From positions 139,359,418 through 139,423,417 of the forward strand of contig CP092864.1 of the NCBI GenBank assembly GCA_030710605.1: 64,000 nt of DNA. Reading direction: 5' to 3'. Each line of letters starts with the position of its first letter. The stretch's first letter is position 1. This document shows positions 5,213 to 60,770 of this stretch, piece by piece. The notes below the pieces were generated by a model. That model had not been told where the DNA came from and did not search any database. It saw nothing but the letters and a program-made list of their open reading frames with translations. The translations under genes and the position numbers were made by a program. This DNA comes from Cordylochernes scorpioides. Lineage: Eukaryota.

Positions 5213-6468
5213 GGAGTACAAATAAGTTTTGAGGGATTTTTTTATAAATTCGAAGCTTTATTCAGAGAAATTAGTACAATATATTTCATTCAAAGTATTG
5301 TCCATCTTTAGCTACGACTTTTTCCCATCTTTCAGGCAGCATACGGATATCGTGTCGAAAAAATTCCTCGTCTTTTGAGGCGATCCAAACATTGACCCAA
5401 TTTTTCGCCTCTTCGTAAGAAGTGAAGTGCTGCTCGGCCAGGCCATGTGTCATCGAACGGAACATGTGGTATTCTGAAGGAGCAATGTCTGGTGAATACA
5501 GCGGGTGGGGTAGGACATCCCATTGAAGCGCCTCCAAAGTCTCCTTGACAACTTTTGCAACATGTGGCCGAGCGTTGTCGTGCTGATAGATCACCTTGTC
5601 ATGTCTTTTGGCATATAGTGGGCATTTAATCTTCAATGCTCGGCTTAATCGCATCAATTGTTGTTGGTAACGTTCTCCAGTGATGGTTTCGTTAGGCTGA
5701 AGTAGCTCATAGTAGATCACTCCGAGCTGATCCCACCAGATGCACAGCATTTGCTTCTTGCCATGAATATTCGGTTTGGCCGTTGAAGTTGATGCATGAC
5801 CGGGCTTAACCCACGATTTTCCGCGCTTTGGGTTGTCGTAGTGAATCCACTTTTCGTCCCCCGTCACGATTCGATGCAAAAAAACCCTTCCGATTTTGTC
5901 TTTTGAGCAGTAGTTCGCACGTGCAAATACGGCGCTCGATGTTTCCTGGCTTGAGTTCATATGTAACCCAATTTCCTTGTTTTTGCACCATACCCATGAC
6001 CTTGAGACGGTTCGAAATCGCTTGTTGAGTCACTCCCAAGGTTTCAGCGAGCTCCTCTTGAGTTTGGCTTGAATCTTCGTCCAATAAAGCCTCCAACTCA
6101 GCGTCTTCGAACTTTATTGGCCTCACTCCGCGTTCTTTGTCTCTGGTGTCAAAATTGCCACTTTTGAAACGCCGAAACCAGTACTCACATGATTTTATTG
6201 ATAGAGCATGTTTACCATATGCCTCACACAGCAATCGATGTCCATCAGTTGCACTTTTCTTCAAATTAAAACAAAAAAGCAGCGCTTCCCGCAAATTGTG
6301 TTTTGTTGGCAAAAAAGTTGACATGGTTAGAGCACCAAAAAAAAGTTCCTTACACTTGAGTAAAAGACTTCTTCTGATTTTTTTGGGGAAATGATGAAGG
6401 TCTGATGCTATTTATATAATATTTGTTGTGGCTTCTTTTGCAAATCCCTCAAAACTTATTTGTACTCC
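5213..6468 (-). mobile_element. Tc1/mariner (Mos1-like) DNA transposon, defective copy
   Basis: About 27-bp TIRs: ggagtacaaataagttttgagggattt (5213-5239) and its reverse complement (6442-6468). The internal transposase shows close similarity to Mos1. Confidence 0.85.
5286..6324 (-). pseudogene. mariner (Mos1-like) transposase, frameshifted. N-terminal HTH part is ORF 5806-6324; DDE/D part is ORF 5286-5960.
   Basis: Peptides match Mos1: 'LLFCF.LKK.A...HR.L.EA.G', 'HRIVTGDEKWI.Y.NPKR', 'WWDQ.GVIYYELL', 'HDNARPHVA', 'PHP.YSPD.APS.YH'. The two ORFs overlap in different frames, which indicates a frameshift. Confidence 0.85.
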
Positions 6469-6929: not shown

Positions 6930-7210
6930 TATATATGTGGCAATATAATAAGGTGGGGAAAGAGAAATAATCACACCACAAGTTTGGAAGAGGAACCCAG
7001 GCAACCAGAGAGAGAGAGAGAGAGAGCCGGGCCCGGCAAAGCCGGGCGTCCGTTCGTGTCGCCCACAATCCCCCAACTGTCTTAATAGTCCCGAGGTTCC
7101 AAGTAACAGGCCCCAGTGGTCGCCCCTTGGAATGTCGCTGATGTCTAAAGGGACCGGACTTTACCCGCCTGTCTCTCTCTGGGTCGACTGTAGGTTTGCT
7201 TTATTATTCC
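6930..7210. repeat. Unclassified ~280-bp interspersed repeat (2 copies: here and 49935-50245), flanked by (TA)n
   Basis: About 85% identity between the two copies. It contains (GA)n and 'gggcccggcaaagccgggcgtccgttcgtgtcgc'. Confidence 0.6.
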
Positions 7211-7504
7211 TGGAAGAGTATATATTGTGACATATACCTATATCATTTTGTGAAAATATAAGAAAAAAATAGAAAAATCCTGACCTTTCACAAGAACATT
7301 TAAGATTGCAGAGTGCCATCTAGTAGAACAAATATCACATGATTAGCATGACCTTTATACCAAGTGTACTAGGGATAATAATAATAATTATAAGAAGACA
7401 TTTGTCATTTTCATTTTGTAGTTTCCCCATTGAATATAGGTCAATAAAATATATTGAGAATTTGAAACTATTATAGATGCGTATGATTATTATTATTATT
7501 TTTT

Positions 7505-7690
7505 TTTTATTTAACAATTTTCTACTGCCCTTACTGCAATAAAAAAATTAATAGGAGAAGCTCATCAGTGGTGACCCCTCATAGCAGTTTCGCCAGTTTA
7601 ATCTACCATTCACTGCTGAGCCAGGCCCTACCATTAATTTTTCATTGCAGTAAGGGCAGTAGAAAATTGTTAAATAAAAAAAGAATCATA
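7505..7690. mobile_element. Palindromic foldback element P1 (arms 'caattttctactgcccttactgcaat.aaaaattaat.g…ctcatcagtggtgacccctc')
   Basis: Near-perfect inverted arms. Relatives are at 10848-10915, 27290-27360, 28346-28547 and 54180-54320. Confidence 0.6.
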
Positions 7691-7814
7691 CGCGTCTATA
7701 ATAGTTTCAAATTTTCATGACAGATGGCGCGCTAAAATATATTGAGTTGTCCCTCTTATGTGGGAGATTGGTTGTGCTATAGAAGAATATCTTTCCACTT
7801 CCAAGGTCCACTTG

Positions 7815-7907
7815 ATGTTCCAGAAACTGGCTCCCAGGAGTGAGGAAGATAGCTGCAGAGTCCAGATCTACACGGATAGTCCGAGGTTGGAGGAATTCTT
7901 CACGGAG
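7815..7907 (+). CDS. STX1: syntaxin-1-like t-SNARE, first coding exon (N-terminus 'MFQKLAPRSEEDSCRVQIYTDSPRLEEFFTE')
   Basis: ATG at 7815. The exon ends ...acg gag|gtaagt (donor GT at 7908). 'RLEEFFTE' aligns with the conserved syntaxin-1 'RDRFMDEFFEQ' that precedes the Habc helix. The phase-0 end joins the next exon in frame. The 5' boundary is uncertain: an in-frame ATG also exists at 7758. Confidence 0.5.
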
Positions 7908-8340
7908 GTAAGTCCCAACCTCCAGGAATGCCCATAATATGAGGAGTTACCATTATGGTTGAACACTAGGACACACAAGGGACATCTTAGAAACATATGG
8001 CCTCCCTGACATTTCTGTCCATAAGTCTGCCCTCACAGAGAAATTTGTTGATCCAAAATGCTGAACTTGTTTGAAGTCTCTCCCATACTTTCCAATAATA
8101 ACATTTTTTTAAAATAAAAAAGTCATTAAGAGCTGAAGTTTGAAAAAGGAAGGAACTCTATGAATAAAACTGACACCTAGAAAATCTTTAAGACTCTAAG
8201 CTTTTTCTACAGGCTAAATAGCTCGGCTATTTCAGATTTAAAAAGTTTTCTAATATGGAATGTCATCATCTTCCTTCTTGGACAAGTTAATTTTCACATC
8301 TACCTGTTTAAGGCCCAACATTTCTTTAGCTTATTTAAAT

Positions 8341-8444
8341 ATACAGTAGAACACCTCTTTGTAAAGGAAAACACCTAGTTGCTGGGCCAAAGTGTCCTTT
8401 AGGGTGAGGTGTGCTCCAATGGAAAAGTTTCTTTTTAGTAAAAA
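8341..8444. mobile_element. MITE-2 left half, a duplicate of 8848-8951
   Basis: 104 bp identical to the start of the full copy downstream. The two are separated by the Helitron-like element. Confidence 0.6.
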
Positions 8445-8850
8445 CTAGCCGAATGACCCTGGCAACGCCCGTGTTTTACCCGATTGATTGTTTTGATTCA
8501 AATACTATTTGTTACAATTATAAATTGGCGCCTTAAATAAATGCATATATTAGTTAATAACTATAGCCTATGTGCTTTATCTGTCTATGTACTGTTGGCT
8601 TCCGTAGGCGTCTCTTACTGGGAAAAAGAAAGAGAGGATTCCATTTAGTTATTAACTAATATATGCATTTTTATTTAAGGAGCGACCTGCTCCAACACAA
8701 TAGTTACAAAAACCAAAAAGCGAGTGGGGGGGGGGCAAAGGTGGCGTGATCGTAGCCAACCAATAGGAGAGCGCCATTCCAGAAAAAAAGCAAACGGTGA
8801 CAGAGATGAAGAATTAAGAATGCATGACGCTCGTAACTGTATATAGAATA
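8445..8850 (-). mobile_element. Helitron-like element, family X (~410 bp)
   Basis: It begins CTAGccgaatgaccctggcaacgcccgtgttttacccgatt (reverse complement: hairpin, ~8 nt, CTAG|T). It ends …caaacggtgacagagatgaa…gacgctcgtaactgtatatagaata. Near-identical copies are at 10062-10470, 38440-38865 and 27764-28165. Confidence 0.6.
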
Positions 8851-9036
8851 CAGTAGAACACCTCTTTGTAAAGGAAAACACCTAGTTGCTGGGCCAAAGT
8901 GTCCTTTAGGGTGAGGTGTGCTCCAATGGAAAAGTTTCTTTTTAGTAAAAATGGTCATTTGGGTGATATGAAAACTGTTCTTTGTAGAGAAATGTCTGAT
9001 GAAAGTCTCTTCCTCTCATGGAGGATTTTCTACTGT
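8848..9036. mobile_element. MITE-2 full copy
   Basis: atacagtagaacacctctttgtaaaggaaaacacctagttgctgggcc… through …catggaggattttctactgtat. Confidence 0.7.
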
Positions 9037-9828
9037 ATCATAAAATAGTGTTCAAATGCTCTCAAGAGCCCCTTAGACTACAGTAGGTTCCCAAACACCT
9101 TCAACTTCACATCTATTTTATAATGCCCCCCCCCCCCCCCAACAAAGTCTTCTATAAGAAGAACTAATCCCCTCTAAAAGTTTTCATTGCCCACTGGAAG
9201 GTTGAACTTACCGCCCACTTTGAGATAATTCCTATCTTTTCTTGTTTCTTGGAAAGTTCCCCTCCAAGAGTTGGTTTACTACCAGACCCACAGTCCACTC
9301 CTGACACTTGGTGGGTTTGCCAGTCTGCAGGTTTAACAGGAGCCACCAAAAGGGATTTATTACAAATATCTATCTTACAGTAATTTGTGGATTTACCCTA
9401 GAATTTGATATGCTTTGGTTAATGCCTCTCCTTTTACCCCACTGAACCGAGAGACTAAAAATGCTCACTAATCTTGGAAGTTGTCATTCTTTGGAAGATC
9501 ACAACTGCATGTATATATCTTACAAACTCTTTATTTTCCTTCAATTTGTTTTCTAAGCAATCTCTGTAAAGAACACTTGGCTTATGACTTGGCATTATCT
9601 AAGTTATCCCAATTTCATACATGCTCTGCAGCTTCTCACATTCAAGTCTAGCAGCTTTAACAACACCTAGCTATGAGAATGATGTAAAACTGATCTGTAT
9701 CAGTGAAATAGAAAATGTGAATTGACAGAAGTGGAGTACTAGCATTAAAACACATTGAAACTAATGCCATATATCAACCATTATCTGAACTACACTCATG
9801 GACAATACATAAAGAAGTTGTACCTTGA

Positions 9829-10058
9829 TTAGGCACAATTTGGATTATAGATTATAAACACAAGGTAATAAGACCAAATCCAAATAAATAAATAGTGTGT
9901 GACGTTTCGGTAACAGCGTTGTTACCATCTTCAGACAAAAGTACTGAATAAGAAAATTTTACCACAGCATGTGGCTGAAAATGGTAACAACGCTGTTACC
10001 AAAACGTCAAACACTATTTATTTATTTGGATTTGGTCTTATTACTTTGTGTTTATAAT
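9829..10058. mobile_element. MITE-1 full copy
   Basis: Both arms are near-perfect. It abuts the Helitron-like element at 10062. Confidence 0.75.
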
Positions 10059-10061
10059 CTA

Positions 10062-10470
10062 CTAGCCGAATGACCCGGGCAACGCCCGTGTTTTACCCGA
10101 TTGAGTGTTTTTATTCAAATACTATTTGTTACAATTATAAATTGGCGCCTTTTATAAATGCATATGTTAGTTAATAACTATAGCCTATGTGCTTTATCTG
10201 TCTATGTACTGTTGGCTTCCGTAGGCATCTCTTAGTGGGGAAAAAGAAAGAGAGGATTCCATTTAGTTATTAACTAATATATGCATTTATTTAAGGGGCG
10301 ACCCGCTCCAACACAATAGTTACAAAACGAAATAGCGAGTGGGGGGGGGCAAAGGTGGCGTGATCGTAGCCAACCAATAGGAAAGCGCCATTCCAAAAAA
10401 AAAGCAAATGGTGACAGAGATGAAAAATTATTAAAAACGCATGACGCTCGTAACTGTATATAGAATAATC
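10062..10470 (-). mobile_element. Helitron-like element, family X
   Basis: Same termini and body as 8445-8850. CTAG at 10062-10065 is preceded by T on the complementary strand. Confidence 0.6.
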
Positions 10471-10919
10471 CAAATTGCGCCTTATCAACTAATAGAGAGT
10501 ATTATTTTTCATGGAGTGGGGGAATAATTCTGACCCATGATTTAGCATCTTGTGTTGCCAACACATAAAACATTGCTAGTTGATGGCCTTTCTTGTACTG
10601 CCTAGTGTATGGTACTAACTATGAGAGGGAGGGATTGGTTTCTGAAAAGCAAGCCTAGAGTGTTTTGACATTTCCCAGGTGTTCACTATATCCAGTTTCA
10701 CTGAGCTACCCACTCACAAAATAAACACAGCTCTAATTGCTGCTGCATAAACTGACCAGAAAGTTTCCTCAAGTGAAACTATAAATAAGGATAGATCTAT
10801 GAGAAATTAACACTATTTTTGTAGTGTATGATTCTTTTCAAAATAAAATAATTTTCTACTGGCCTTATTGCAATGATAAAATTAGTAAGGGCGACAGAAA
10901 ATTATATATATATTTTTAA

Positions 10920-13339
10920 CCCTTAAGCGGTCGCAATGGGTAAAAATTACCCAGAAGGAACTTTTCGAAAATATTTCTATATTAAAAAATATATATATTT
11001 AAAATATATTCTCAGTACCTTTCTAAATCTATCTAAAGATTATTATAATAAACCTATAATTTTAATTTTATGACATATATTCATTTTATTAGCATGTTTG
11101 GGTCAATTTTACCCAGTGCGACCTTTTGAGTTCTCATCATTGGGTAATTTTTACCCAGCGCGACCTTTTAACGCTTTTGGTTTTGGTTTGCGTAATTAAG
11201 TTTCGAGTTACTTTCTGGCTTCTTGTTGTTTGGTTTTGCTGCCCCAAGTGCAATAATACAATCTATTCTTCCAACAATAAGGTAGGATTTATATTTTATT
11301 TCCTCTTTTTACATTATTTTACATAAAATGCTTTCAAATGCTGATTTTCTCCGTGATTATAATAATATTCCAAATCCCGATGATGAGGAATCAGAAACTG
11401 ATGATCATATAGAAGAGAGGAATTGGAGTACAGACACTGAACAGTATACATTATCAGAAGAAGAAAACAATGAGGATCCAAGCTTCAATTACTATATAGG
11501 AAAGGACCAAAAGACTAAATGGAAGAAAGCTCTTCCCCCAAAAAATGTTCGAACTCGCAGTGAAAATATTATCACCCATCTACCAGGGGTAAAGGGTGAA
11601 GCAAAAAATGCTAAATCGATATTAGATTGTTGGAATCTCTTTATAAATGACAATATACTTGAATGCATAGTTACAAATACTAATATTTACATTAGGAATA
11701 TTCAGCAGAACTATAGCAGAGAAAGAGATGCTAATTTGACAAACCTACAGGAAATTAAAGCTTTATTGGGAATTATTTACTTTCTTGGGGTCATGAAAGC
11801 GAATAAATTGAATGGGCAAGAGATAGTACTGGATTTGAATTGTGTAGAATAGCTATGTCTGAAAACAGATTCCGATTTCTTCTCAGAGTAATTCGTTTTG
11901 ATGACAAAGCTAAAAGAAATGAAAGACTTCGTCAAGATGAATTAGCAGCTGTGAGATTGATTCTTGATACTTTTGTAAAAAATTGCCAAAAGCATTATTC
12001 TCCTTCGGAATATATAACGGTGGATGAAAAGCTTGACGCTTTCAGAGGGAAATGCAATTTCAGGCAGTATATTCCGAGTAAACACAATAAATATGGAATA
12101 AAATTATTTGCTCTCGTGGATTCAAAAATGTTTTATACTTGTAACTTGGAGATTTATTCAGGAAAAAACCCTGAAGGTCCTTACAATGTCAGCAACAGTC
12201 CAAGTGACGTTGTGGAACGATTGTGTGAGCCAATCAAGGGAACTGGCCGCAATGTAACAATGGATAACTGGTTCACCAGTTATTCTTTAGCTCTAAAACC
12301 TTTACAACAATTTTGACTAACAATTGTTGGTACCTTAAAAAGAAATAAAAAGGAAATCCCCTCAGAGTTTGTCATCAGCAGAGGTAGAAATGTACACACT
12401 AGTGTTTTTGGCTTTCAAAGTGAAATGACACTTCTTTCATACAAGCCTAAAGAGAATAAAGTTGTACTTATGCTTTCAACTCTGCACCACGATGCAAATA
12501 TAGATGATTCAACGGGAGAATTGAAAAAGCCAGAGATGATAATGTTTTATAATATGACAAAGGGTGGTGTAGATATGATGGACGAAATGACAGCTACATA
12601 TAACTGTGCTAGAAATTCAAGAAGATGACCCATGGTTATTTTTTATTCACTTTTAAATATTGGGGCAATAAATTCCCAGATAATTCATTTTGCAAATGGC
12701 AACGCATCAAAGGTTAAATCAAGACGTCATTTTTTAAAAACCTTATCCTTAGATCTTATTGAAGTGATGGTCAAAGTTCGCACAGTAAACGGAAGAATAC
12801 CATGTGAAATAAAGGAAAAGGCATCCGATATTTCTAATTTGTTAGAGCCTGGTCCATCTAAAAAGCCAAAAATAGGAAAAAGACATCGATGCAAGAAATG
12901 CCAGAAAGAAAAAAAGGACAAAAACTATTCAACATTGCCAGTACTGTTTTGCTTTTTTGTGTAAGGAACACTCTGTAATAATTTGTCAAGAATGTCATAA
13001 AGGACGAAACAAGTCCTAATTTCTATGAAAGGAAGTGATAACTTTCATACAAATTTATATTTTATAACCTATCTTCAATATATATTTTTATTTTCATAAA
13101 ATAGTCGAATATATCATAAATATTTGATATTTTGATTTGTTATTAATAAAATAAATAAAATATGATTTTTATATCTCAAAATTTTATGTAAAGTTATTTA
13201 ATAGACAAATCATTATTCTAACATAGAAAACAATAAAAATATTGAAAAGAATATTTGATTTATTTAGGTTTTTAAAAGTGGGTAAATTTTACCCACCGCG
13301 ACCTTTCAAGGTATAAAAGAGGGCGCGACCGCTGCCGGG
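10920..13339 (+). mobile_element. piggyBac-superfamily DNA transposon (family 1), near full length but decayed
   Basis: Flanked by TTAA (10916-10919 and 13340-13343). Termini are cccttaagcggtcgc… and …gcgaccgctgccggg (TIR ccc..agcggtcgc). Subterminal repeats 'gggtaaa(a)ttttacccag.gcgacctttt' occur at 10940, 11100-11170 and 13275. Confidence 0.8.
11328..13018 (+). pseudogene. piggyBac transposase (DDD domain plus C-terminal Cys-rich domain), broken into 4 ORFs
   Basis: Peptides 'FRFLLRVIRFDD', 'VDEKLDAFRGKCNFRQYIPSKHNKYGIKLFALVD', 'NVTMDNWFTS', 'MFYNMTKGGVDMMD', and the C-terminal 'RCKKCQKEKKDK…CQYCFAFLCKEHSVIICQECHKG' CRD. The ORFs sit in different frames. Confidence 0.85.
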
Positions 13340-13365
13340 TTAAAGAATCATACGTGTCGATAAGG

Positions 13366-13700
13366 CACAATTTGGATTATAGATTATAAACACAAGGTAA
13401 TAAGACCTAATACAAATAAATAAATAGTGTGTGACGTTTCGGTAACAGCGTTGTTACCATCTTCAGACAAAAGTACTGAATCATATATATCAGAAATGGA
13501 AATTTGCACATCACATACTTTGAGGACTATTAGAAGATCATCTTTTGACCATTTTCTATGACTGTCCTAACTCTACACAGAAGTGAGATTGTTTGATTCA
13601 GTACTTTTGTACTAAGATGGTAACAACGCTGTTACCGAAACGTCACACACTATTTATTTATTTGGATTTAGGTCTTATTACCTTGTGTTTATAATCATAC
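13366..13700. mobile_element. MITE-1 full copy with a ~120-bp internal insert shared with 18445-18545
   Basis: Both arms are intact. The internal 'atcagaaatggaaatttgcacatcacatactttgaggactattag…' also occurs at 18448. Confidence 0.7.
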
Positions 13701-18595: not shown

Positions 18596-18951
18596 CTTCT
18601 TCTTCTTTCTTATCTCCACTCAATCATATCAGGTTATCAAGCTTGTAGAGCTTGAAACTTGACAACCACCATGACTGGGTGAAGTAGAATGCGTCTGCCT
18701 TTGTCATTAAGACTGGGAGCACTACTCAGTGGCAGGCCGACTTAGCTCCAAAAGAAATGGCCGCCTCTGACATGAGGAACAGACGCCATGTGCAGCCGCT
18801 CCTAACATGGAGTACAAACGCTGCTCATCCTGTATCCCTGGATTAGGAGCCCTTACAGGGTACTATCAGCCGGACCAGCTGAACCCAGGTTTTTTAGTGA
18901 GCTTGTTACTGCTCCCCCTCCTCCTTTTTCATCCGGGCTTGGGACCGGCAA
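18596..18951 (-). mobile_element. SINE-1 full copy
   Basis: Same consensus as 25-392. It ends 'ccgggcttgggaccggcaa' at 18951. Confidence 0.7.
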
Positions 18952-19744
18952 GTGTTTATATACATTTTATAAACTGTTGCTTCATAAAGAACAGTATCAA
19001 CAGGAGAATAGACATCCCAGAATAATTCTGTTATACTCCAAATCAAGATTAAATAGCAACCATTTAATAAATCTTTCCCCCCCTTCCCTTCCCGTGCTCA
19101 CTGTTACTTTGCCTGTTGAAAAGTGAGAGCTCAAAAGCTCACGCTGTTTTTGTAAAAAAGAAACATATTGTGTACACTCTCAGATTGGTGCACTATGATG
19201 TTGGTACGTTTAGATTAAAATGGTCTCAAGCAAAGGTGACAATATATATATTTAAAGAGGATCAACTTTGTATACAAAAAGCAAACTAAAACGAATAAAA
19301 ACAACTGGTTTCTTTTTCCCGTAGATTACATAAGGCCTAGCGACGAAGTACGTCCATCTCATCAAGCAAGCTGTGCGCTCTACTCTACAAGCCTCACTAC
19401 CCTACCACGACAACTGCCGGCACAGGCAACATCGCCTTTTATATAGGCAAAAGATAAAACAATAGAAAAATGCAAAATAGCTATTTACATAAAATATAAA
19501 ATACAAATTATCTATGTTCCTAACAAAACATATTGTGTAAAGTTTTTTAAAATATTTTATACATGTAAATCTGTAAATATTTAATGCTAAGTTTCAGTTT
19601 GTTTGTTATGTTTCCTCTGTAATAGCCACAAATACTTCAATACTGCGTCTTAGAGGATAATAAATTTTAAAAATAATAAATCTTTTGACCCTCCATGTAA
19701 TGGAGAGCTATAGGCCTCTTGGAGAATGAAGGAAGAACCAATAA

Positions 19745-19864: not shown

Positions 19865-20625
19865 AAAATGTATCCACCTAAAACCGGTACAATTTCACAT
19901 TTGTACTATTTTTTCACATTAAAGAAGTGTTGTTCTCAAAGGGAGGTCTGAAATAGGTAATTTTTTTTTGTTGCTTATCCCAAGTACACGTGGTACAGGC
20001 CATGATAATCATGGTGGGTAGAAGTACCTAAACCCAGTACAATTTCACATTTGTACTATTTTTTTCACATTAAAGAAGTGTTGTTCTCAAAGGGAGGTCT
20101 GAAATAGGTAGTTTTTTTTTTGCTTATTCCTAGTACACGTGGTACAGGCCATGATAATCATGGTGGGTAGAAGTACCTAAACCCAGTACAATTTCACAAT
20201 TGTACTATTTTTTTCACATTAAAGAAGTGTTGTTCTCAAAGGGTGGTCTGAAATAGGTAGTTTTTTTTTGCTTATTCCTAGTACACGTGGTACAGGCCAT
20301 GATAATCATGGTGGGTAGAAGTACCTAAACCCAGTGCAATTTCACATTTGTACTATTTTTTTCACATTAAAGAAGTGTTGTTCTCAAAGGGAGGCCTGAA
20401 ATAGGTAGTTTTTTTTTGCTTATTCCTAGTACACGTGGTACAGGCCATGATAATCATGGTGGGTAGAAGTACCTAAACCCAGTACAATTTCACATTTGTA
20501 CTATTTTTTCACATTAAAGAAGTGTTGTTCTCAAAGGGTGGTCTGAAATAGGTAGTTTTTTTTTTGCTTATTCCTAGTACACGTGGTACAGGCCATGATA
20601 ATCATGGTGGGTAGAAGTAGGCGAA
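19865..20625. repeat. Satellite, ~127-bp unit × 6, derived from a SINE-2 3' end plus flanking sequence
   Basis: Each unit contains the reverse complement of 'ctacccaccatgattatcatggcctgtaccacgtgtactagg' and 'gggataagcaaaaaaaa'. Confidence 0.85.
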
Positions 20626-22575: not shown

Positions 22576-22885
22576 ATCTTCTTCTTCTTTCTTATCTCCA
22601 CACTGGGTGAAGTAGAATGCGTCTGCCTTTGTCATTAAGACTGGGAGCACTACTCAGTGGCAGACCGACTTAGCTCCAAAATAAATGGCCGCCTCTGACA
22701 TGAGGAACAGACACCATGTGCAGCCGCTCCTAACATGGAGTACAAACGCTGCTCATCCTGTATTTCTGGATTAGAAGCCTTTACAGGGTAATATCAGCCG
22801 GGCCAGCTGAGCCCAGGTTTTTTAGTGAGCTTGTTACTGCTCCCCCTCCTCCTTTTTCATCCGGGCTTGTGACCGGCAAGGGCGG
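22576..22885 (-). mobile_element. SINE-1 copy with an internal/tail deletion
   Basis: tcttcttctttcttatctccacac|tgggtgaagtagaatgcg… It lacks the 'tcaatcatattagggtatcaag…' segment. Confidence 0.65.
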
Positions 22886-22894
22886 AGTTATGAT

Positions 22895-23120
22895 ACATTA
22901 TGATAAAGCACAATTTGGATTATAGATTAGAAACATAAGGTAACAAAATCACCTCCAAATCAATACATTGTTCATGAGGTTTGGGTAACATTATTGTTAC
23001 CATCTTCAGACAAAATACTGGATTTAGTGAATGAAGAATCATTTAGTACTTTGGTAACAAAGCTGTTACTGAAATGACACACTATTTATTTGGATTTGGT
23101 CATATTTCCATGTGTTTCTG
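22895..23120. mobile_element. MITE-1 copy (diverged)
   Basis: Arms 'gattagaaacataaggtaacaaaatcacctccaaatcaatacattgttcatgaggtttgggtaacattattgttaccatcttcagacaaaatac' and '…ggtaacaaagctgttactgaaatgacacactatttatttggatttggtcatatttccatgtgtttc'. Confidence 0.55.
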
Positions 23121-23939: not shown

Positions 23940-24253
23940 AACTGTCTTCTTCTTCTTTCTTATCTCCACACTGGGTGAAGTAGAATGCGTCTGCCTTTGT
24001 CATTAAGACTGGGAGCACTACTCAGTGGCAGGCCGACTTAGCTCCAAAAAAAAAATGGCCGCCTCTGACATGAGGAACAGATGCCATGTGCAGCCGCTCC
24101 TAACATGGAGTACAAACGCTGCTCATCCTGTATCCCTGGATCAGGAGCCCTTACAGGGTACTATCAGCCGGGCCAGCTGAACCCAGGTTTTTTTAGTGAG
24201 CTTGTTACTGCTCCCCCTCCTCCTTTTTCATCCGGGCTTGGGACCGGCAAAGG
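23940..24253 (-). mobile_element. SINE-1 copy, short-tail variant
   Basis: Same deletion variant as 22576-22885. Confidence 0.65.
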
Positions 24254-24284
24254 CGAAAGTAGATTTTAACTGTAAGTTTTGCCA

Positions 24285-26756: not shown

Positions 26757-27072
26757 CTTCTTCTTCTTCTTTCTTATCTCCACACTGGGTGAAGTAGAAT
26801 GTGTCTGCCTTTGTCATTAAGACTGGGAGCACTACTCAGTGGCAGGCCGACTTAGCTCCAAAAGAAATGGCCGCCTCTGACATGAGGAACAGACGCCATA
26901 TGCAGCTGCTCCTAACATGGAGTACAAACACTGCTCATCCTTTATCCCTGGATTAGGAGCCCTTACAGGGTACTATCAGCCGGGCCAGCTGAGCCCAGGT
27001 TTTTTAGTGAGCTTGTTACTGCTCCCCCTCCTCCTTTTTCATCTGGGCTTGGGACCGGCAAAGGCGGAGTTA
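26757..27072 (-). mobile_element. SINE-1 copy, short-tail variant
   Basis: tcttcttcttctttcttatctccacactgggtgaag… through …gggaccggcaaaggcggagtta. Confidence 0.65.
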
Positions 27073-27763
27073 ATACAAAGTAATAACGCGTCACTATATA
27101 TAACGAATGAAGACATTATTTAAATGTAATTCTACTATCCTAAAAGCTTATATCCATAGTTTGCTTAAATACCATTTCTAAGATTCCACCCTTCAGCGCA
27201 GCATATAAAAGCAAAATGATCCAATACAGTATTGGTGCTCTAAAGAAGCGGTCTGGTAGATTAAAAAAAAAAAAAATTGGCAAAATCACTAGGAGGGTTC
27301 ACCACTGATGAGCCAAGCTCTCCTAATATTTTTCATCGCAGTAAGGACAGTAAAAGTTTGATTTATGTATGAAAAGAAACATTTGCATCTTAATGTCTTC
27401 AAGAGAATAAATGATCATTATAAAGCATCAATGCCACAAAATCTTGATTTTTTAGATGAAAAGTCAAACCCTAGAACAAATACGCCATTGGACATCATGT
27501 TGACATCAGCAGCTGTAGATTCCTCCATTGTACAAGCCGGCCCAACTTGATACAGCAAATGTCTGACAACAACCTCAGGTAGGGAAGTTGAATCAGGAGG
27601 AAGGAGCGTGGAGACAATGGAGGTGTTGGTTGGGTCAGCTCCCCCATACCAATTAAGAATTTCATCACAGAGTTGAAATACTTCCTCCCACATATCATTA
27701 TTTTTGGTGGTGGTGGTGGTCATTGAATCACACTTCTTTCTTCCCCTTCCCCCTTTAAGGAAT

Positions 27764-28165
27764 TCTATATACTGTTACGAGTGTCATGCGTTCTTAATAA
27801 TTTTTCATCTCTGTCACCGTTTGCTTTTTTTTGGAATGGCGCTCTTCTATTGGTTGGCTACGATCACGCCACCTTTGCCCCCCCCCCCACTCGCTTCTTC
27901 GTTTTTGTAACTATTGTGTTGGAGCGGGTCGCTCCTTAAATAAATGCATATATTAGTTAATAACTAAATGGAATCCTCTCTTTCTTTTTCCCAGTAAGAG
28001 ACGCCTACGGAAGCCAACAGTACATAGACAGATAAAGCACATAGGCTATAGTTATTAACTAACATATGCATTTATTTAAGGCGCCAAATTATAATTGTAA
28101 CAAATAGTATTTGAATCAAAACATTCAATCGGGTAAAACACGGGCGTTGCCCGGGTCATTCGGCT
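27764..28165 (+). mobile_element. Helitron-like element, family X, + orientation
   Basis: Reverse complement of the 10062-10470 copy. It ends …cgggcgttgcccgggtcattcggCTAG|T at 28165. Confidence 0.6.
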
Positions 28166-28345
28166 AGTGTGAAGAGAAGAGAGATTAAGGTTGAAACTAC
28201 TTTATTACAATCCATATAAGTTTAAATATAAAATACTGAATATAAATAAGGCTAAATAATGATAAATATATGGATAAAATAAATATAAATGTATAAGGTA
28301 ATTTATAAATATACATATACAGTTATTTAAGAGGCGTAATATTCT

Positions 28346-31589: not shown

Positions 31590-32280
31590 AACAGTCACCT
31601 ACTTTTATCCACCGTGATTATCATGGCCTGTACCATATTTGTGTGTATTAGGGATAATAATAAAAAATAGTAATAACTGAAATGGGCATGTGTCAAAATA
31701 AGCAGTCGCCAACTACCCACCATGATTATCATGGCCACATGTACTATGGATAATAATAAAAAATAGTAATAACTGAAATGGGCATGTGTCAAAATAAGCA
31801 GTCGCCAACTACCCACCATGATTATCATGGCCACATGTACTATGGATAATAAGAAAAATAGTAATAACTGAAATGGGCATGTGTCAAAATAAGCAGTCGC
31901 CAACTACCCACCATGATTATCATGGCCACATGTACTATGGATAATAAGAAAAATAGTAATAACTGAAATGGGCATGTGTCAAAATAAGCAGTCGCCAACT
32001 TCCCACCATGATTATCATGGCCACATGTACTATGGATAATAAGAAAAATAGTAATAACTGAAATGGGCATGTGTCAAAATAAGCAGTCGCCAACTACCCA
32101 CCATGATTATCATGGCCACATGTACTATGGATAATAAGAAAAATAGTAATAACTGAAATGGGCATGTGTCAAAATAAGCAGTCGCCAACTTCCCACCATG
32201 ATTATCATGGCCTGTACCACATGTACTATGGATAATAAGAAAAATAAAATAACTGAAATGGGCATGTGTCAAAATAAATA
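31590..32280. repeat. Satellite, ~121-bp unit × ~5.5, derived from the SINE-2 3' region
   Basis: Unit 'aaaaatagtaataactgaaatgggcatgtgtcaaaataagcagtcgccaactacccaccatgattatcatggccacatgtactatggataataag'. It causes the spurious overlapping ORFs at 31595-32272. Confidence 0.85.
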
Positions 32281-34408: not shown

Positions 34409-34950
34409 ACTCAACACTGACTTTAATTCAACCACCTATAACTCAACACTGACTTTAATTCAACCACTTATAACTCAACACTGACTTTAATTCAACCACC
34501 TATAACTCAACACTGACTTTAATTCAACCACCTATAACTCAACACTGACTTTAATTCAACCACCTATAACTCAACACTGACTTTAATTCAACCACCTATA
34601 ACTCAACACTGACTTTAATTCAACCACCTATAACTCAACACTGACTTTAATTCAACCACCTATAACTCAACACTGACTTTAATTCAACCACCTATAACTC
34701 AACACTGACTTTAATTCAACCACCTATAACTCAACACTGACTTTAATTCAACCACCTATAACTCAACACTGACTTTAATTCAACCACCTATAACTCAACA
34801 CTGACTTTAATTCAACCACTTATAACTCAACACTGACTTTAATTCAACCACCTATAACTCAACACTGACTTTAATTCAACCACCTATAACTCAACACTGT
34901 CTTTAATTCAACCACCTATAACTCAACACTGACTTTAATTCAACCAATTT
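34395..34950. repeat. Minisatellite, 31-bp unit 'tcaacactgactttaattcaaccacctataac' × ~18
   Basis: Strictly contiguous units with occasional single-base variants. It is embedded in a 'ttaattcaac' MITE-family element (33960-35040). Confidence 0.9.
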
Positions 34951-35529: not shown

Positions 35530-35835
35530 ACTAGCCGAATGACCCGGGCAACGCCCGGGTTTTACCCGATTAAATACTTTTATTCAAATACTATTCGTTA
35601 CAATTATAAATTGGCGCCGTGGATGTCATTCTTGTATAATATATAAATGAGTTTTAAAAATTGTAAAAAAATGCATCGGCCGGGAATTGAACCCGGACTG
35701 CCCTCGTGGCAGGCAAGCATTCTACCACTGAACCACCGATGGTTATGAGAAATGGCCATATTTGGGTATTTATTCCATTCACAAAGCAAACGGTGACAGA
35801 ATTGATTAAGAAAGAATTGATTATGACGCTGATAA
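35530..35835 (-). mobile_element. Helitron-like element, tRNA-Gly-carrying variant
   Basis: CTAGccgaatgacccgggcaacgcccgggttttacccgatt terminus at 35530. The internal family-X segment is replaced by '…ggcgccgtggatgtcattcttgtataatatataaatgagttttaaaaattgtaaaaaaa' plus the tRNA-Gly-like copy. It then rejoins 'caaacggtgacagaattgatta…gacgctgataactgtatat'. Confidence 0.55.
35672..35743 (-). pseudogene. tRNA-Gly(GCC)-like copy inside a Helitron-like element, acceptor stem degenerate
   Basis: Reverse complement is accatcggtggttcagtggtagaatgcttgcctGCCacgagggcagtccgggttcaattcccggccgatgca. The 5' end CCATCGG fails to pair with the 3' end at position 1. Confidence 0.55.
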
Positions 35836-36232
35836 CTGTATATATTAATACTCTAATGAATGTATCACAGTTAATAGATTTTTTAAAAAGTATCCTTGCA
35901 ATACACTTGAATCTCTCTGTAACAACATCACTTGGGACCAATACACTCGAGGACATAACTGAAGAATCTGTTCCTTTTAGCACATATATCAGGATTCAGA
36001 CAATAACTGAAAAATGTTTGGTACAAAGTGACCTTTATTGAAGACACATGAGATAACCAATGTGAACAAAATTGCCTGTCTCCTTAAAAAAATAGATGAC
36101 AGGTGGCATCAAAGACTTTCCACTTCTTCAAGTTTTGTCCGTGAGTGTATTTTATTTTGTTATAAACAACATTAGTTATTAAAGAGGTTTTATAAGGACT
36201 TCGATATATATATATATATTGTTTTGAAAATA

Positions 36233-38425: not shown

Positions 38426-38439
38426 TATATATTATTACT

Positions 38440-38865
38440 AGCCGAATGGCCCGGGCAACGCCCGTGTTTTACCCGATTGAATGTTTTTATTCAAATACTA
38501 TTTGTTACAATTATAAATTGGCGCCTTAAATAAATGCATATATTAGTTAATAACTATAGCCTATGTGCTTTATCTGTCTATGTACTGTTGGCTTCCGTAG
38601 GCGTCTCATACTGGGAAAAGGAAAGAGAGGATTCCATTTAGTTATTAACTAATATATGCATTTATTTAAAGAGCGACCCGCTCCAAAACAATAGTTACAA
38701 AAACGAAAGAGCGAGTGGGGGAGGCATGATGGGGGGGGCGAGGGCAAAGGTGGTGTGATCGTAGCCAACCAATAGGAGTGCGCCATTCCAAAAAAAAAAG
38801 CAAAAGATGACAGAGACGACTGATGAGGAATGACGCTCGTAACTGTATATAGAATTACTATATGA
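38440..38865 (-). mobile_element. Helitron-like element, family X
   Basis: CTAGccgaatggcccgggcaacgcccgtg… through …gacgctcgtaactgtatatagaat. It lies directly adjacent to the previous fragment. Confidence 0.6.
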
Positions 38866-39889: not shown

Positions 39890-40265
39890 TACTCAGAGAT
39901 GGCTAAACCTGACACCTCTACATCTCAAATTTTTGTATCAATTGACTAAGAGGGTCAATAAAATATTCTTGAATTGTCAATTGTCTACATCTCAAATTTT
40001 TGTATCAATTGACTAAGAGGGTCAATAAAATATTCTTGAATTGTCAATTGTCTACATCTCAAATTTTTGTATCAATTGACTAAGAGGGTCAATAAAATAT
40101 TCTTGAATTGTCAATTGTCTACATCTCAAATTTTTGTATCAATTGACTAAGAGGGTCAATAAAATATTTTTGAATTGTCAATTGTCTACATCTCAAATTT
40201 TTGTATCAATTGACTAAGAGGGTCAATAAAATATTTTTGAATTGTCAATTGTCTACATCTCAAAT
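39890..40265. repeat. Tandem repeat, ~61-bp unit × 6 ('tctacatctcaaatttttgtatcaattgactaagagggtcaataaaatattcttgaattgtcaattg')
   Basis: Near-identical units about 120 bp downstream of syntaxin exon 3. Confidence 0.85.
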
Positions 40266-46427: not shown

Positions 46428-47776
46428 ATACAAGGTGTGTCCAATAAATAATGAGACCGGTCAAAAATAGAAAGCTTCAGCTACACTGCGGTATATCACA
46501 TCACGTTATTGCGCGCGCAGTCGATAAATTGTAAGCTTGTAAAAAGAACGCCTTGCATAACAACTTCTAATTTGTAATGGATAGAAAATTCGAACAACGA
46601 ATTTGTATTAAATTTTGCTACAAAATTGGGAAATCAGCTTCAGAAACTTTAGATTTGTTGAAATTGGCATTTGGAAAGGAAAATGTAAATAAGCCCACCA
46701 CATTTAGATGGTTTTCACGATTTAAAAAAGGAATGGAATCGGTGAAAGATGAGAAGCGTGTTGAACGTCCATTTCTGCACAGGAACCCTGAAAAGGTGAG
46801 CCAAATTTCAAATTTTATAAAAGATAATCCACGAATAGGGTTACGGGACATTGAGGAAGAAACAGGGATATCAAAATCATTAGTTGGATCGATAATTAAA
46901 GAAGACACCTTCAAAATTTATCCCTAAAATGCTCACAATCCAACAAAAGGAGAATCACGTTGAAGTTGCCAAAAAAATGCTTGAAATGGTGGAAGAAAAC
47001 CCTAATTGGAAGGAAAAAGTAATAACTGGAGACGAGACATGGGTTTACGGGTATGACCCGGAAACAAAACGCCAATCCATGGAGTGGAAAGGAAAATATG
47101 AAACAAGAACGAAGAAATCCCGACTTTGCAAGTCAAAAAACAAAGTCTTATTGGTCACGTTCTTTGACATAAAGGGAATTGTGCATTATGAATATCTAAC
47201 AGAGCTCCAACATCGGGTCGCTCGAATCAGCTTCCGCCTTTTTTTAGGCATTACTCGGCCGAGTCCGTTTAAATCAGCCCTGCCAGGCTCCTAGAGGAAG
47301 GTCAAACAATCAATAAGGAGTCTTATTTAAACATTATGAGACGTGTACATGAATCAATTCGTCTGAAAAGAAGTGAAATGTGGAGTTAAAAATTGGATTA
47401 TCCATCATGATAATGCACCACCACACACCGCTACATCTGTACTGACTTATTTGGCTAAACACGGCATCCAAATACAACAACCTCCCTATTCCCCAGACCT
47501 AGCTCCAAATGATTTTTTTCTCTTTCCAAAACTCAAAATGGCTCTAAAAGGAAGGAGATTTGACACTAGAGTCCATCATAGCGGATTCGAAAAAGGTCTT
47601 GAAGAACATCCTGAAAGATGCCTTTTATAAATGTTTTAAATCATGGGAGAAGAGATGGAAATTATGTATAGATGCGGGAGGGGACTATTTTGAAAAATAC
47701 TAATAAAATTTTTTTTATCATTCTATTTTTTCTTTATTTTTGACCAGTCTCATTATTTATTGGACACACCTTGTAT
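46428..47776 (+). mobile_element. Tc1/mariner-superfamily DNA transposon (second family), defective
   Basis: About 40-bp TIRs: tacaaggtgtgtccaataaataatgagaccggtcaaaaata (46429-46469) and its reverse complement (47735-47775). TA is at both junctions. Confidence 0.8.
46577..47630 (+). pseudogene. mariner-like transposase, split over three frames (ORFs 46577-46927, 46929-47294, 47373-47630)
   Basis: Peptides 'ITGDETWV', 'HHDNAPPH', 'PPYSPDLAPNDFFLFPKLK' are typical of the mariner/HTH_48+DDE_3 type. Frameshifts and stops separate the ORFs. Confidence 0.8.
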
Positions 47777-49100: not shown

Positions 49101-49559
49101 TAAGAGTGATACAAGTTATTTTATTTTATAGAAGATACATATGTCACCTATTCTCTTCAAAGCTATCTTCCCCCAATGATGAAGTAAAGAAAGTGTTGGA
49201 GAAGGATGTATGTTGGAGGATGGCAAAGACATGGTGGGTCCACTGAAGAGGATTCCAATGGCATTCTGCCAAGTTCCACCTCACCTTGTCACTGGCTCCA
49301 CCCAACTTGTCCCATCCTTGTTCCTCACCCTTGCTGATGAGCTAACTCTCACAGCTTTGTTTGATGTGCTGCCAGAGCTTTGCTTTTACAAATGGTTTAA
49401 ACTTTGCTCAAATTCAAAGTAGTTTCACTCTCGAACAAGATCAGGATTAACCCTGGAATTCCTTCTTTAATAAATATTTTTTAAGAAAATGGTGAGGATT
49501 CAATTTGGATAAGAATCACAAAGTAGCATGACCAAATCTAAATAAGTAAATTATAGTTG

Positions 49560-49725
49560 ATGAGGCACAATTTGGATTGTAGATTATAAACACAAGGTAA
49601 TAAGACCAAATCCAAATAAATAAATAGTGTGTGACGTTTCGGTAACAATGCTGTTATCGAAACGTCACACACTATTTATTTATTTGGATTTGGGTTTATT
49701 ACCTTGTGAAGTAAATTATAGGTGA
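49560..49725. mobile_element. MITE-1 copy with a deleted central loop
   Basis: gcacaatttggattgtagattataaacacaaggtaataagaccaaatccaaataaataaatagtgtgtgacgtttcggtaacaatgctgttatcgaaacgtcacacactatttatttatttggatttgggtttattaccttgtg. Confidence 0.65.
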
Positions 49726-50586: not shown

Positions 50587-50895
50587 TTGTAAGTTTTGGA
50601 GACAAATTTTGCAAATTCAATAAAAATATCTTTATAAATAGAAAAATGATAGGCACAATTTGGATTATCTCTATATATATAAAAGTCAATGTCTGTCTGT
50701 TTCGTGATAAACTCAAAAACTACTGAACCAATTGGTACCAAATTTTGTATGTCGCTTTTTATAAACCTGAGGAAAATTTTAGGCTACATTTTGATTAGTA
50801 TTTTTGGCTATTTCTTTTTTTCATTTGAAGAACTTTTTTTTACGCAGAGTAATCCGGAATTGAATGAATACCCAAATATGGCCATTTTTTTATAA

Positions 50896-50966
50896 GCATC
50901 CGTGGTTCAGTGGTAGAATGCTCGCCTGCCACGCGGGCAATCCGGGTTCGATTCCCGGCCGATGCA
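50896..50966 (+). tRNA. tRNA-Gly (anticodon GCC), near-canonical, embedded in a Helitron-like repeat
   Basis: gcatccgtggttcagtggtagaatgctcgcctGCCacgcgggcaatccgggttcgattcccggccgatgca. It is close to the canonical eukaryotic tRNA-Gly-GCC. The D-arm and T-arm (GGTTCGATTCC) are intact, with one acceptor-stem mismatch (C6:C67). An oligo-T follows immediately. Confidence 0.65.
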
Positions 50967-50983
50967 TTTTTTTTTTTTTTTTT
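50967..50983 (+). terminator. RNA polymerase III terminator (T17 run) directly after the tRNA-Gly
   Basis: An uninterrupted run of 17 T starts one base after the tRNA 3' end. Confidence 0.6.
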
Positions 50984-51237
50984 ACAATTTTTAAAACTCA
51001 TTTATATTATATATAATATAAATATATATTATTATATCAACTATATTAATTAAATCAAATACCTAAACACTAATATAATATAATTTTTGCCATCACACAC
51101 ACTTTTTTCCTGTAGTTTGTGTTACTTCTGTATTGCTATTCTATGGCACTTCTAATATTTATTATTGATGTACTTTCAGTATGAAGGAAATTGCAATCCG
51201 GGGAATTCTCTGGCGAAGCCGGGTCATACGTCTAGTA

Positions 51238-51333
51238 GATTATAAACACAAGGTAATAAGACCAATTCCAAATAAATAATTTATATTTATTTATTTGGAT
51301 TTTGTCTTATTACCTTGTGTTTATAAATAGAAA
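51238..51333. mobile_element. MITE-1 mini copy (arms fused)
   Basis: agattataaacacaaggtaataagaccaattccaaataaataatttatatttatttatttggattttgtcttattaccttgtgtttataa. It lies immediately after the CTAG end of the Helitron-like element. Confidence 0.55.
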
Positions 51334-54961: not shown

Positions 54962-55185
54962 TGATAAAGGCACAATTTGGATTATAGATTATAGCTACAA
55001 GAAAATAAGACCTAATCCAAATAATTTAATAGTGCGTAATGTTTCTGCAACAGCATTGTTACTATAATCAGATAAAAGAATAAAATCATTTTTATTCTTT
55101 TGTCTGATGATGGTAACAACCGAAATGTCACACACTATTAAATTATTTGGATTAGGTCTTATTTTCTTGTAGCTACTTCCTTTAT
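54962..55185. mobile_element. MITE-1 full copy (divergent subfamily)
   Basis: Arms are 'gcacaatttggattatagattatagctacaagaaaataagacctaatccaaataatttaatagtgcgtaatgtttctgcaacagcattgttact' and its reverse complement. Confidence 0.65.
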
Positions 55186-57958: not shown

Positions 57959-57959
57959 A

Positions 57960-58245
57960 CCCGATTAAATGCTTTTATTCAAATACTATTCGTTACAATT
58001 ATAAATTGGCACCGTGGATGTCATTCTTGTATAATATATAAATGAGTTTTAAAAATTGTAAAAAAAAAAAAAATGCATCGGCCGGGAATCAAACCCGGGC
58101 CGCCCGCGTGGCAGGCGAGCATTCTACCACTGAACCACCAATGGTTATGAGAAATGGCCATATTTGGGTATTTATTCCATTCACAAAAGCAAACGGTGAC
58201 AGAATTGATTACGAAAGAATTGATTATGACGCTGATAACTGTATT
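57960..58245 (-). mobile_element. Helitron-like tRNA-Gly-carrying variant, 3'-truncated (no CTAG or hairpin)
   Basis: It starts 'cccgattaaatgcttttattcaaatactattcgttacaattataaattggcaccgtggatgtcattc…' and is colinear with 35569-35835. It abuts a SINE-2 tail at 57958. Confidence 0.5.
58074..58145 (-). pseudogene. tRNA-Gly(GCC)-like copy inside a Helitron-like element, acceptor stem degenerate
   Basis: Reverse complement is ccattggtggttcagtggtagaatgctcgcctGCCacgcgggcggcccgggtttgattcccggccgatgca. It has an A-run (oligo-T on the - strand) after the 3' end. Confidence 0.55.
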
Positions 58246-58416
58246 ATACTTAATAATAAAGTCTCTGAAATGTTTGCCTAATGGAGATGTGACATGTCAT
58301 CTCATGGCTTATTGGATCTCCCTAGCTACTACCAGCTGTCAGAGTTGGTGGTATCTAGGAGTTAAACACGTGGATCTACTCTCACTTTGATAAACTGACT
58401 GTCTTCTGTGTGCCAG

Positions 58417-60145: not shown

Positions 60146-60466
60146 AACTTCCTTAAGTTTTCATTATGTTTTTTTTTTTTTGGCTTAATTTCCGAGTTGA
60201 GTACTTCATTTTTTCTTTTCAGGGAAGAATTTTTCATTAATAAAATCAATTTCTTTATACTTGCAGAATAATTTTAGCATGTCATTGTTTCTTTAAAATA
60301 CCTTCTTTCTTTTTAAAATGGCCTTTTTGAATTTTTAAGCTCTAAATTCACTTTAAAATGATGTTTATTATTTCAAAAGATAGGTGGATGACTCCATTTT
60401 ATTTATTAATCAGGAAAGTGAACAAAAAAATATTGGATACTTTCAACGATGTGTGAAACTCCACCT

Positions 60467-60770
60467 TTGCCGGTCCCAAGCCCGGATGAAAAAGGAGGAG
60501 GGGGGGGCAGTAAAAAAGCTCACTAAAAAAACCTGGGCTCAGCTGGCCCGGCTGATAGTACCCTGTAAGGGCTCCTGATCCAGGTATACAGGATGAACAG
60601 CGTTTGTACTCCGTGTTATGAGCGGCTGCACATGGTGTCTGTTCCTTATGTAAGAGGCAACCATTTCTTTTGGAGCTAAGTTGGCCTTGCCACTGAGTAG
60701 TGCTCCCCATCTTAATGAATAAGGCAGATGCATTCTACTTCACCCAGTGTGGAGATAAGAAAGAAGAGAA
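60467..60770 (+). mobile_element. SINE-1 copy, short-tail variant (+)
   Basis: ttgccggtcccaagcccggatgaaaaaggaggagggggggg… through …cacccagtgtggagataagaaagaagagaac. Confidence 0.65.

Follow-up and report, generated by a model that had tools for sequence, protein, structure and literature searches.

The best explanation for a 103-bp direct repeat on the two sides of a 404-bp Helitron, to which a probability of roughly 0.5 can be given, is one aberrant integration of this element, in which the two joins would have been made at AT sites 103 bp apart, leaving a 103-bp target-site duplication. The locus lies in the window, meaning here the whole 64-kb stretch of DNA that was analyzed. Both elements involved are ordinary: a non-autonomous Helitron, called X below, is nested in a mariner-type MITE. 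The identity of X, its intact ends, the AT dinucleotide at both breakpoints and the exactness of the repeat can be read directly in the DNA.

The copy of X at the locus (c1, 404 bp) occupies 8445-8848 on the minus strand and reads in its sense direction 5′-TTCTATATACAGTTACGAG...GGTCATTCGGCTAG-3′, with boundaries conserved in four full copies. The other three, 88.6-95.3% identical to c1, are c2 (10062-10465, minus strand), c3 (27763-28167, plus strand) and c4 (38438-38854, minus strand). All four are flanked by A at the 5′ side and T at the 3′ side, and c3 and c4 lie between these two bases without a flanking duplication. In the sense direction, the full copies (n = 4) follow the scheme A/TTCTATATAC...CGGGC-GTT-GCCCG-GGTCATTCGG-CTAG/T, where the slash marks the edge of an element, or below a point of insertion or joining, and where the hairpin is degenerate in c1. 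The 5′ TC typical of the class is found in each of the four, which start with TTCTATATAC, so that TC follows one extra T; a relative at ~50668 that carries a tRNA-Gly gene starts with TCTCTATATA. The 3′ CTRR motif is contained in GGTCATTCGGCTAG, which ends c1-c4 and the relative v1, with GTCTAG or GTTTAG as variants.

The subterminal 3′ hairpin CGGGC-GTT-GCCCG is located 10 nt upstream of CTAG in c2-c4, where it is present in the minimum-free-energy folds (-7.4 to -10.2 kcal/mol, z -1.5 to -2.7), and v1 has a hairpin in the same place with a longer stem, CCCGGGC/GCCCGGG. In c1, the hairpin position (8459-8471, minus strand) is degenerate: a private G>T at 8460 (plus strand) abolishes the structure, and the region folds at -4.0 kcal/mol (z -0.5). 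This mutation could be decay after insertion or could be tied to the aberrant event. A repeat search of 7000-10500 found no terminal inverted repeats pairing the ends of X, and the sole inverted repeat inside the element is internal (8528-8563 and 8646-8683). This internal repeat has arms of about 36 bp and a spacer of 82 bp and is situated where related elements hold a tRNA-Gly gene; a nested fold-back element and a captured segment are possible origins. The relatives of X in the window have their ends in common and differ in their interiors.

The insertion site of c2 defines the element to the base. This copy interrupts the right arm of a fold-back MITE-3 (9825-10061 and 10466-10488), where it lies between A and T with no duplication. 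Once X is taken out, the sequence on its two sides matches seven uninterrupted MITE-3 arms at every base (...ATAATCTA/TAATCCAAATTG), and the paralogous empty site around the insertion point reads ATAATCTA/TAATCC. The insertion is exactly between A and T, and target bases are neither gained nor lost. This empty site fixes the plus-strand limits of X as CTAG...TATAGAA and assigns the extra 5′ T to the element; the plus-strand end is ...TATAGAA and not ...GAATA, which corrects the 'tatatagaATA' given in an earlier note on this DNA.

Because of the termini, the hairpin, the empty site between A and T and the lack of terminal inverted repeats, X is shown, by the published definitions (PMC4778049, PMC5876387), to have the characters of a canonical non-autonomous Helitron with its sense strand on the minus strand at c1. 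The earlier note had described a Helitron-like element of 404 bp exactly between the repeats, and both statements are confirmed, the first by the termini, the hairpin, the A/T target and the empty site and the second by the limits 8445-8848; the orientation of X and the AT dinucleotides at both breakpoints were absent from it. A Helentron or Helitron2, characterized by insertion between T and T and by asymmetric terminal inverted repeats, is ruled out by the A/T empty site, and no terminal inverted repeat was found. X resembles the canonical non-autonomous Helitrons (Helitron1 type, such as the HelibatN families mobilized by Helraiser and the lepidopteran Hel-2) in its 5′-TC-type and 3′-CTAG ends (PMC4778049, PMC4344730), in the GC-rich hairpin about 10 nt from the 3′ end, in its small size and absence of terminal inverted repeats, in the combination of conserved ends with variable or captured interiors, and in the A/T insertion of c2 without duplication. 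It differs from them in the 5′ T-TC instead of TC and in having no RepHel partner in the window, where the ORFs of at least 110 aa hold no RepHel gene and are mariner or piggyBac remnants or repeat read-throughs. The family is therefore canonical, but c1 is a non-canonical insertion, with A and T at both joins and with a 103-bp direct target repeat, which is never found at canonical insertions (PMC5876387).

The target of this insertion is a complete MITE-2 (8849-9037, plus strand), with TA at 8849-8850, a body of 185 bp at 8851-9035 and TA at 9036-9037, which reads TA/CAGTAGAAC...TTCTACTG/TA. In the alignment of the family (n = 11 copies) the form is TA/CAGTAGAAC...GTTCTACTG/TA with a length of ~180-190 bp, and CAGTAGAAC and GTTCTACTG are the terminal inverted repeats. 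The TA duplication and the terminal inverted repeats starting with CAGT show MITE-2, as judged from these features, to be a Tc1/mariner-type MITE, resident with its TA duplication before X. The right-hand MITE-2 is full-length and collinear with 10 paralogs through position 101/102, without interruption, and this breakpoint is therefore not a natural boundary of the family. Since the right-hand MITE keeps its full length and its collinearity with the family, and since the original left flank and TA are found at the left copy, the ancestral locus can be reconstructed as flankL-TA-MITE-TA-flankR. As single-stranded DNA, MITE-2 folds with z = -4.0; one breakpoint (S1) lies at the base of its terminal stem and the other (S2) in the central unpaired region, an arrangement that is not decisive. 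Where the 5′ end of X meets the terminus of MITE-2, a 7-bp palindrome, ACTGTAT-ATAGA-ATACAGT, spans the junction (8836-8854), but the fold of ACTGTAT/ATACAGT is not significant (z -1.7). The 5′ region of X, TACAGTTAC, is similar to the MITE-2 terminal repeat TACAGTAGAAC.

The repeat search found 104 nt with 100% identity between 8341-8444 and 8848-8951, so the base-for-base identity reported earlier for these positions stands at 104/104 nt. The target-derived repeat is 103 nt long (8342-8444 and 8849-8951) and is composed of the TA target duplication and MITE-2 positions 1-101, which agrees with its earlier description as half of a MITE, the whole MITE being 185 bp. The 104th matching base (A at 8341 and A at 8848) is the own last base of X, coinciding with the A of the AT target; the real ambiguity at the junction is 1 nt, and not the ATA overlap that had been proposed. 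The left copy (8342-8444, plus strand) has TA at 8342-8343 and MITE-2 positions 1-101 at 8344-8444; it adjoins the left flank, which is unique, and can be aligned with the MITE-2 family as far as position 101, where X follows. The right copy (8849-8951, plus strand) contains the same TA and positions 1-101 and runs on into the remaining MITE. Each of the two flanks of the locus is found once in the window. Read along the sense strand of the Helitron, the order is right flank, MITE(185-102), MITE(101-1) with TA, X from 5′ to 3′, MITE(101-1) with TA, and left flank.

MITE-2 copies elsewhere in the window are only 71-79% identical to the copy at this locus; on these identities, both copies of the repeat must derive from one and the same MITE, and the duplication must be local. 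The remaining exact direct repeats of comparable length within 2 kb are tandem arrays or copies of a ~310-bp dispersed family. The earlier judgment that the repeat is far too long for a TSD holds, as 103 bp exceeds any canonical target duplication and Helitrons canonically produce none (PMC5876387). The simple tandem duplication proposed with it does not: head-to-tail adjacency is lacking, exactly the 404-bp element keeps the copies apart, and each of them abuts an exact end of it. A second identical MITE-2 jumping into a TA beside X was also rejected. Such an event presupposes the fusion of a truncated MITE to the right flank, with X inserted exactly at this fusion, and in addition a 100%-identical donor in a family with ~25% divergence.

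Both breakpoints are AT dinucleotides. S1 (8341-8342) is located at the outer edge of the left TA of the MITE, and S2 (8951-8952) at MITE-2 position 101/102 (aaaaa/tggtc). The 5′ end of the Helitron (TTC) is joined to the A of the S1 copy at 8848/8849, and its 3′ CTAG to the T of the S2 copy at 8444/8445; the ends of X in c1 are the exact termini of the family, both intact. With an AT frequency of 0.096 in the window, both breakpoints would be AT by chance in ~0.9% of cases. Because both breakpoints are AT and both element ends are exact, both junctions look as if they were made by a Helitron transposase, as opposed to slippage, random end-joining or ordinary assembly joins. The contexts of S1 and S2 are both AT-rich, and Helraiser favors AT-rich targets, above all on the 3′ side (PMC4778049).

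These junctions also bear on a sequence of unrelated events, in which either a partial tandem duplication was followed by X at its junction, or a canonical insertion of X was followed by duplication or gap repair. Local duplication and template-switch repair are common in repeat-rich DNA, and the tandem junction (...AAAAA/TACAG...) would itself be an AT site. However, an unrelated breakpoint would have to match the Helitron terminus to the base and the second would have to be AT (~10% more), while the chance of one particular AT among all AT sites is well below 1%. As the ends of X are intact, with no filler and with microhomology of at most 1 nt, such a history is very unlikely.

The age of the copies was considered in the same way. 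Of the four private substitutions of c1, three are at CpG sites; X contains 15 CpG and the duplicated segment 0. Between the repeats, 0 differences were observed where ~0.5 (non-CpG rate) to ~2 (overall rate) are expected. The duplication may be as old as the insertion of X, and on these counts the timing is compatible with one event, and neither a later event nor an artefact has to be invoked; a repeat younger than the insertion, which was considered and set aside, cannot be shown from four private c1 substitutions, three at CpG, and a repeat without CpG. A generic assembly error, in which one of the copies came from a chimeric read or from the collapse or expansion of a repeat, draws on the fact that a 100% identical local repeat looks like an artefactual duplication, but with c1 of this age and a segment free of CpG, such identity is expected anyway. 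Such an error would also have to invent the 8848/8849 junction, with an intact Helitron 5′ terminus at an AT site, whereas overlap-based joins form within homologous sequence and do not yield junctions of this kind. This origin of the repeat is highly improbable.

The single aberrant integration would start from an X-free locus with MITE-2 and its TA duplication already resident. At S1, the outer edge of the left TA of the MITE, the A would receive the 5′ end of X, and at S2 (MITE 101/102), which is upstream of S1 on the sense strand of X, the T would receive the 3′ CTAG. The upstream DNA would then continue to S1 and the downstream DNA would resume at S2, which would place the S2-S1 segment on both sides of the element. 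Two routes could lead to this outcome. In the first, a double-stranded circle would be opened and the 5′ end of each strand would be joined to a target 3′-OH, on opposite strands and at staggered AT sites; the resulting 103-nt 3′ overhangs would be filled in from the 3′-OH ends of X. Each AT site is a valid target on both strands because AT is self-complementary, and a check of the geometry of this route gives a duplication, not a deletion. In the second route, the target strand would be present in two copies, at a replication fork or on sister duplexes, and one copy would take the 5′ join and the other the 3′ join. In HUH chemistry, the target 3′-OH attacks the 5′-phosphotyrosine-linked end of the element, and both routes would be compatible with such chemistry. 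A related idea, the one-ended sister-chromatid exchange from a resident X, was rejected, as the sister would also carry X and the product would hold two X elements.

Parts of this mechanism have precedents. Double-stranded Helitron circles are transposition-competent, and in vitro the purified Helraiser transposase cuts the right end on both strands (PMC4778049). Target duplications result when both strands of a transposon are transferred, each to a different strand of the target and with a stagger between the two positions, and the integration of Helitrons is thought to be a single-strand transfer without target duplication (PMC5876387). As a tentative generalization, for which we would not give even odds, the two strand-joining steps may be separable and may be aimed at separate AT sites, on opposite strands or on sister copies, which would occasionally produce long TSDs and the reciprocal deletions.

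Several points count against the single integration. It is based on one locus in one assembly, and c1 is alone among eight X-type elements in the window, the other seven having no flanking duplication (0/7). The literature searched gave no case of a Helitron with a long target duplication. S1 lies only 2 nt outside the terminal repeat of the MITE, a coincidence of ~1 in 10 that the single integration does not explain. The defective hairpin of c1 fits read-through models at least as well.

In one read-through model, a canonical insertion of X at S2 would come first. With the hairpin defective, CTAG would be passed and 103 nt would be taken, ending at S1, to give a circle of X and TA-MITE(1-101). 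A single crossover with an X-free MITE on the homologue, that is, a Campbell-type integration, would then automatically flank X with two direct copies of the homologous 103 bp. The structure of the locus corresponds to ~1.25 turns of such a circle (X with 103 bp), the private mutation of c1 abolishes the 3′ hairpin, and the 8848/8849 junction resembles the circle junction expected after termination at S1. Helraiser shows more read-through and transduction when the hairpin is lost, and joined-end circles are real, double-stranded and stable enough for recovery (PMC4778049). This pathway nevertheless requires three steps and an X-free homologue, and hence a heterozygote, and for homologous integration to be efficient in animals, 103 bp is short. 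S1 carries no terminator mark, as the sense strand there ends with ...CTACTGTA and not with CTRR; the composite of X and the 103 bp has no further copy in the window or in the public collections scanned; and the hairpin mutation may be mere post-insertion decay. The read-through circle is accordingly regarded as unlikely.

Read-through capture in its simple form had been suggested in the earlier note, together with a search for other copies of the family carrying the same MITE segment. The locus is like Helitron 3′ read-through (end-bypass) transduction in having host DNA just 3′ of an element whose termination hairpin is defective. The difference is that in transduction the element takes the captured DNA along when it moves to another locus, as a composite with a de novo 3′ end, whereas at c1 the 'captured' DNA is still on its original left flank, its twin is continuous with the remaining MITE, and no second composite was found. 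Simple transduction leaves unexplained the segment that is identical to the resident MITE and continuous with it, and the search suggested in the note, carried out within the window, found MITE-2 sequence at 0/12 flanks of other X-type elements. Two candidate read-through composites, at the X-type 3′ ends 28167 and 14404 with MITE-2 ~450 bp downstream, were rejected, the intervening DNA being unrelated. The pair 22577-22663 and 23945-24031 was rejected as a second example of the duplication, as this 87-nt exact repeat is due to two copies of the abundant ~310-bp family.

Public collections were scanned as well. A 27-mer across the junction of the X 5′ end and the MITE was absent from the metagenome contigs scanned, and a 26-mer of the X 3′ terminus was absent from the viral contigs scanned. 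A 22-mer of the conserved X 3′ end had one metagenome match (L001, Ga0134127_10681864, 815-836), rejected as a chance match in a high-GC bacterial contig; a GC-rich pattern of 22 nt is not specific enough at the size of the metagenome collection. Look-ups of exact products returned no record for three junction-spanning ORFs and the neighboring mariner ORF, or for four mariner proteins annotated in Cordylochernes scorpioides. The 84-aa ORF that spans a junction, used as a protein query against ORFs from raw-run assemblies, gave no candidates.

A further explanation includes no aberrant integration at all. Two insertions of X in the same orientation, one at S1 and one at S2 on two haplotypes, could be followed by unequal crossover or by an assembler switch inside X. 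The product, flankL-M-X-M-rest of MITE, would be real in the case of a crossover and a chimeric artefact in the case of the assembler. Canonical insertions alone would in this way provide perfect A/T junctions at both ends, and the reuse of sites is known, as c2 and the tRNA-Gly Helitron at ~50668-51235 are found at an identical MITE-3 position. Against this, two elements of the same family and the same orientation, 103 bp apart, would have to segregate at one locus, and the density of X of ~1 per 10 kb in the window gives this a very low prior. The published draft of C. scorpioides is Illumina-based and fragmented (PMC8136511), and the 0 N in 64 kb of dense repeats suggests that the window comes from a later long-read assembly; the 507-bp spacing would then be trivially spanned, which speaks against an assembler chimera. 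This double insertion is improbable.

The comparison of the shared site was made between 50650-50667 and 51236-51250 around the tRNA-Gly Helitron and 10040-10061 and 10466-10490 around c2. Both elements are inserted at GGATTA/TAGATTATAAAC in two MITE-3 copies. This coincidence in sequence indicates either a sequence-specific insertion hotspot or co-mobilization as a MITE-3 composite. MITE-3 itself is a very abundant fold-back MITE with arms of ~110 nt, found at 9825-10488 and at more than 20 other sites, e.g., 13356-13481, 49554-49656, 54962-55170 and 2455-2684. The recurrent peptide '...DDGNNAVTETSH...' of several long, spurious ORFs comes from its hairpin core GGTAACAGCGTTGTTACC.

All three tRNA-Gly(GCC) genes of the window (ARAGORN; 44.6-59.9 bits with Rfam) are located inside Helitron-like elements: 35672-35742 (minus strand) in ~35531-35848, 58074-58144 (minus strand) in ~57959-58248, and 50896-50966 (plus strand) in ~50668-51235. 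The three elements have common sequence on both sides of the tRNA, including the T-run terminator, and 2/3 have the ends of X. By these likenesses, this is a putative Helitron lineage with a captured tRNA-Gly gene, which it would be dispersing; no paper on such a lineage was found in the literature searched.

Long target repeats are known from other classes of elements. Classical exact target repeats are expected when breaks made at a stagger on the two strands are filled in. In common with classical TSDs and with the long target duplications of LINE-1 and Alu, c1 has an exact direct repeat of the target abutting both intact ends. The TSDs of DDE transposons are 2-20 bp long, compared with 103 bp at c1. 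The HUH/Y2 RepHel joins 5′ ends to the target 3′-OH, which gives a stagger of opposite polarity (3′ overhangs) to that of cut-and-paste TSDs. The case of X differs from LINE-1 and Alu in that no reverse transcription is involved. The alternative and sister-chromatid transposition of Ac/Ds and P is alike in that the ends engage different target positions or molecules, and its aberrant products carry a local duplication on one molecule and, predictably, a deletion on the other; the chemistry and the element class are different from those of X. No description of such alternative transposition for Helitrons was found in the literature searched.

The rest of the window is rich in other repeats. Mariner (Mos1-like) transposase remnants are present at 5286-6324 (minus strand) and 46577-47294 (plus strand), and a piggyBac-like remnant at 11328-12964 (plus strand); the first mariner remnant (5286-5960) has 94-96% identity to several Cordylochernes scorpioides proteins annotated as 'SETMAR' or hypothetical, which points to this pseudoscorpion or a near relative as the probable host. 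The ~310-bp dispersed repeat, possibly SINE-like, has at least 12 copies with 85-96% identity, among them 22577-22897, 23945-24255, 26759-27077, 18674-18952 and 60457-60767. Tandem-repeat (satellite-like) arrays, with exact blocks of 80-160 nt, are found at 728-1248, 19983-20619, 31663-32190, 34409-34899 and 39917-40168.

The locus, the only one of its kind observed, is an unusual product of an element class already known, and it is a lead, not a new system. Integration is the least understood step of Helitron transposition, and the accepted picture includes one strand, one AT site and no duplication. If the single aberrant integration is true, the 5′ and 3′ joins of a Helitron can happen at different sites. 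It would then be a clue that double-stranded or fork-associated intermediates can integrate, and local segmental duplication with reciprocal deletion, previously undescribed, would be added to the ways in which Helitrons remodel genomes.
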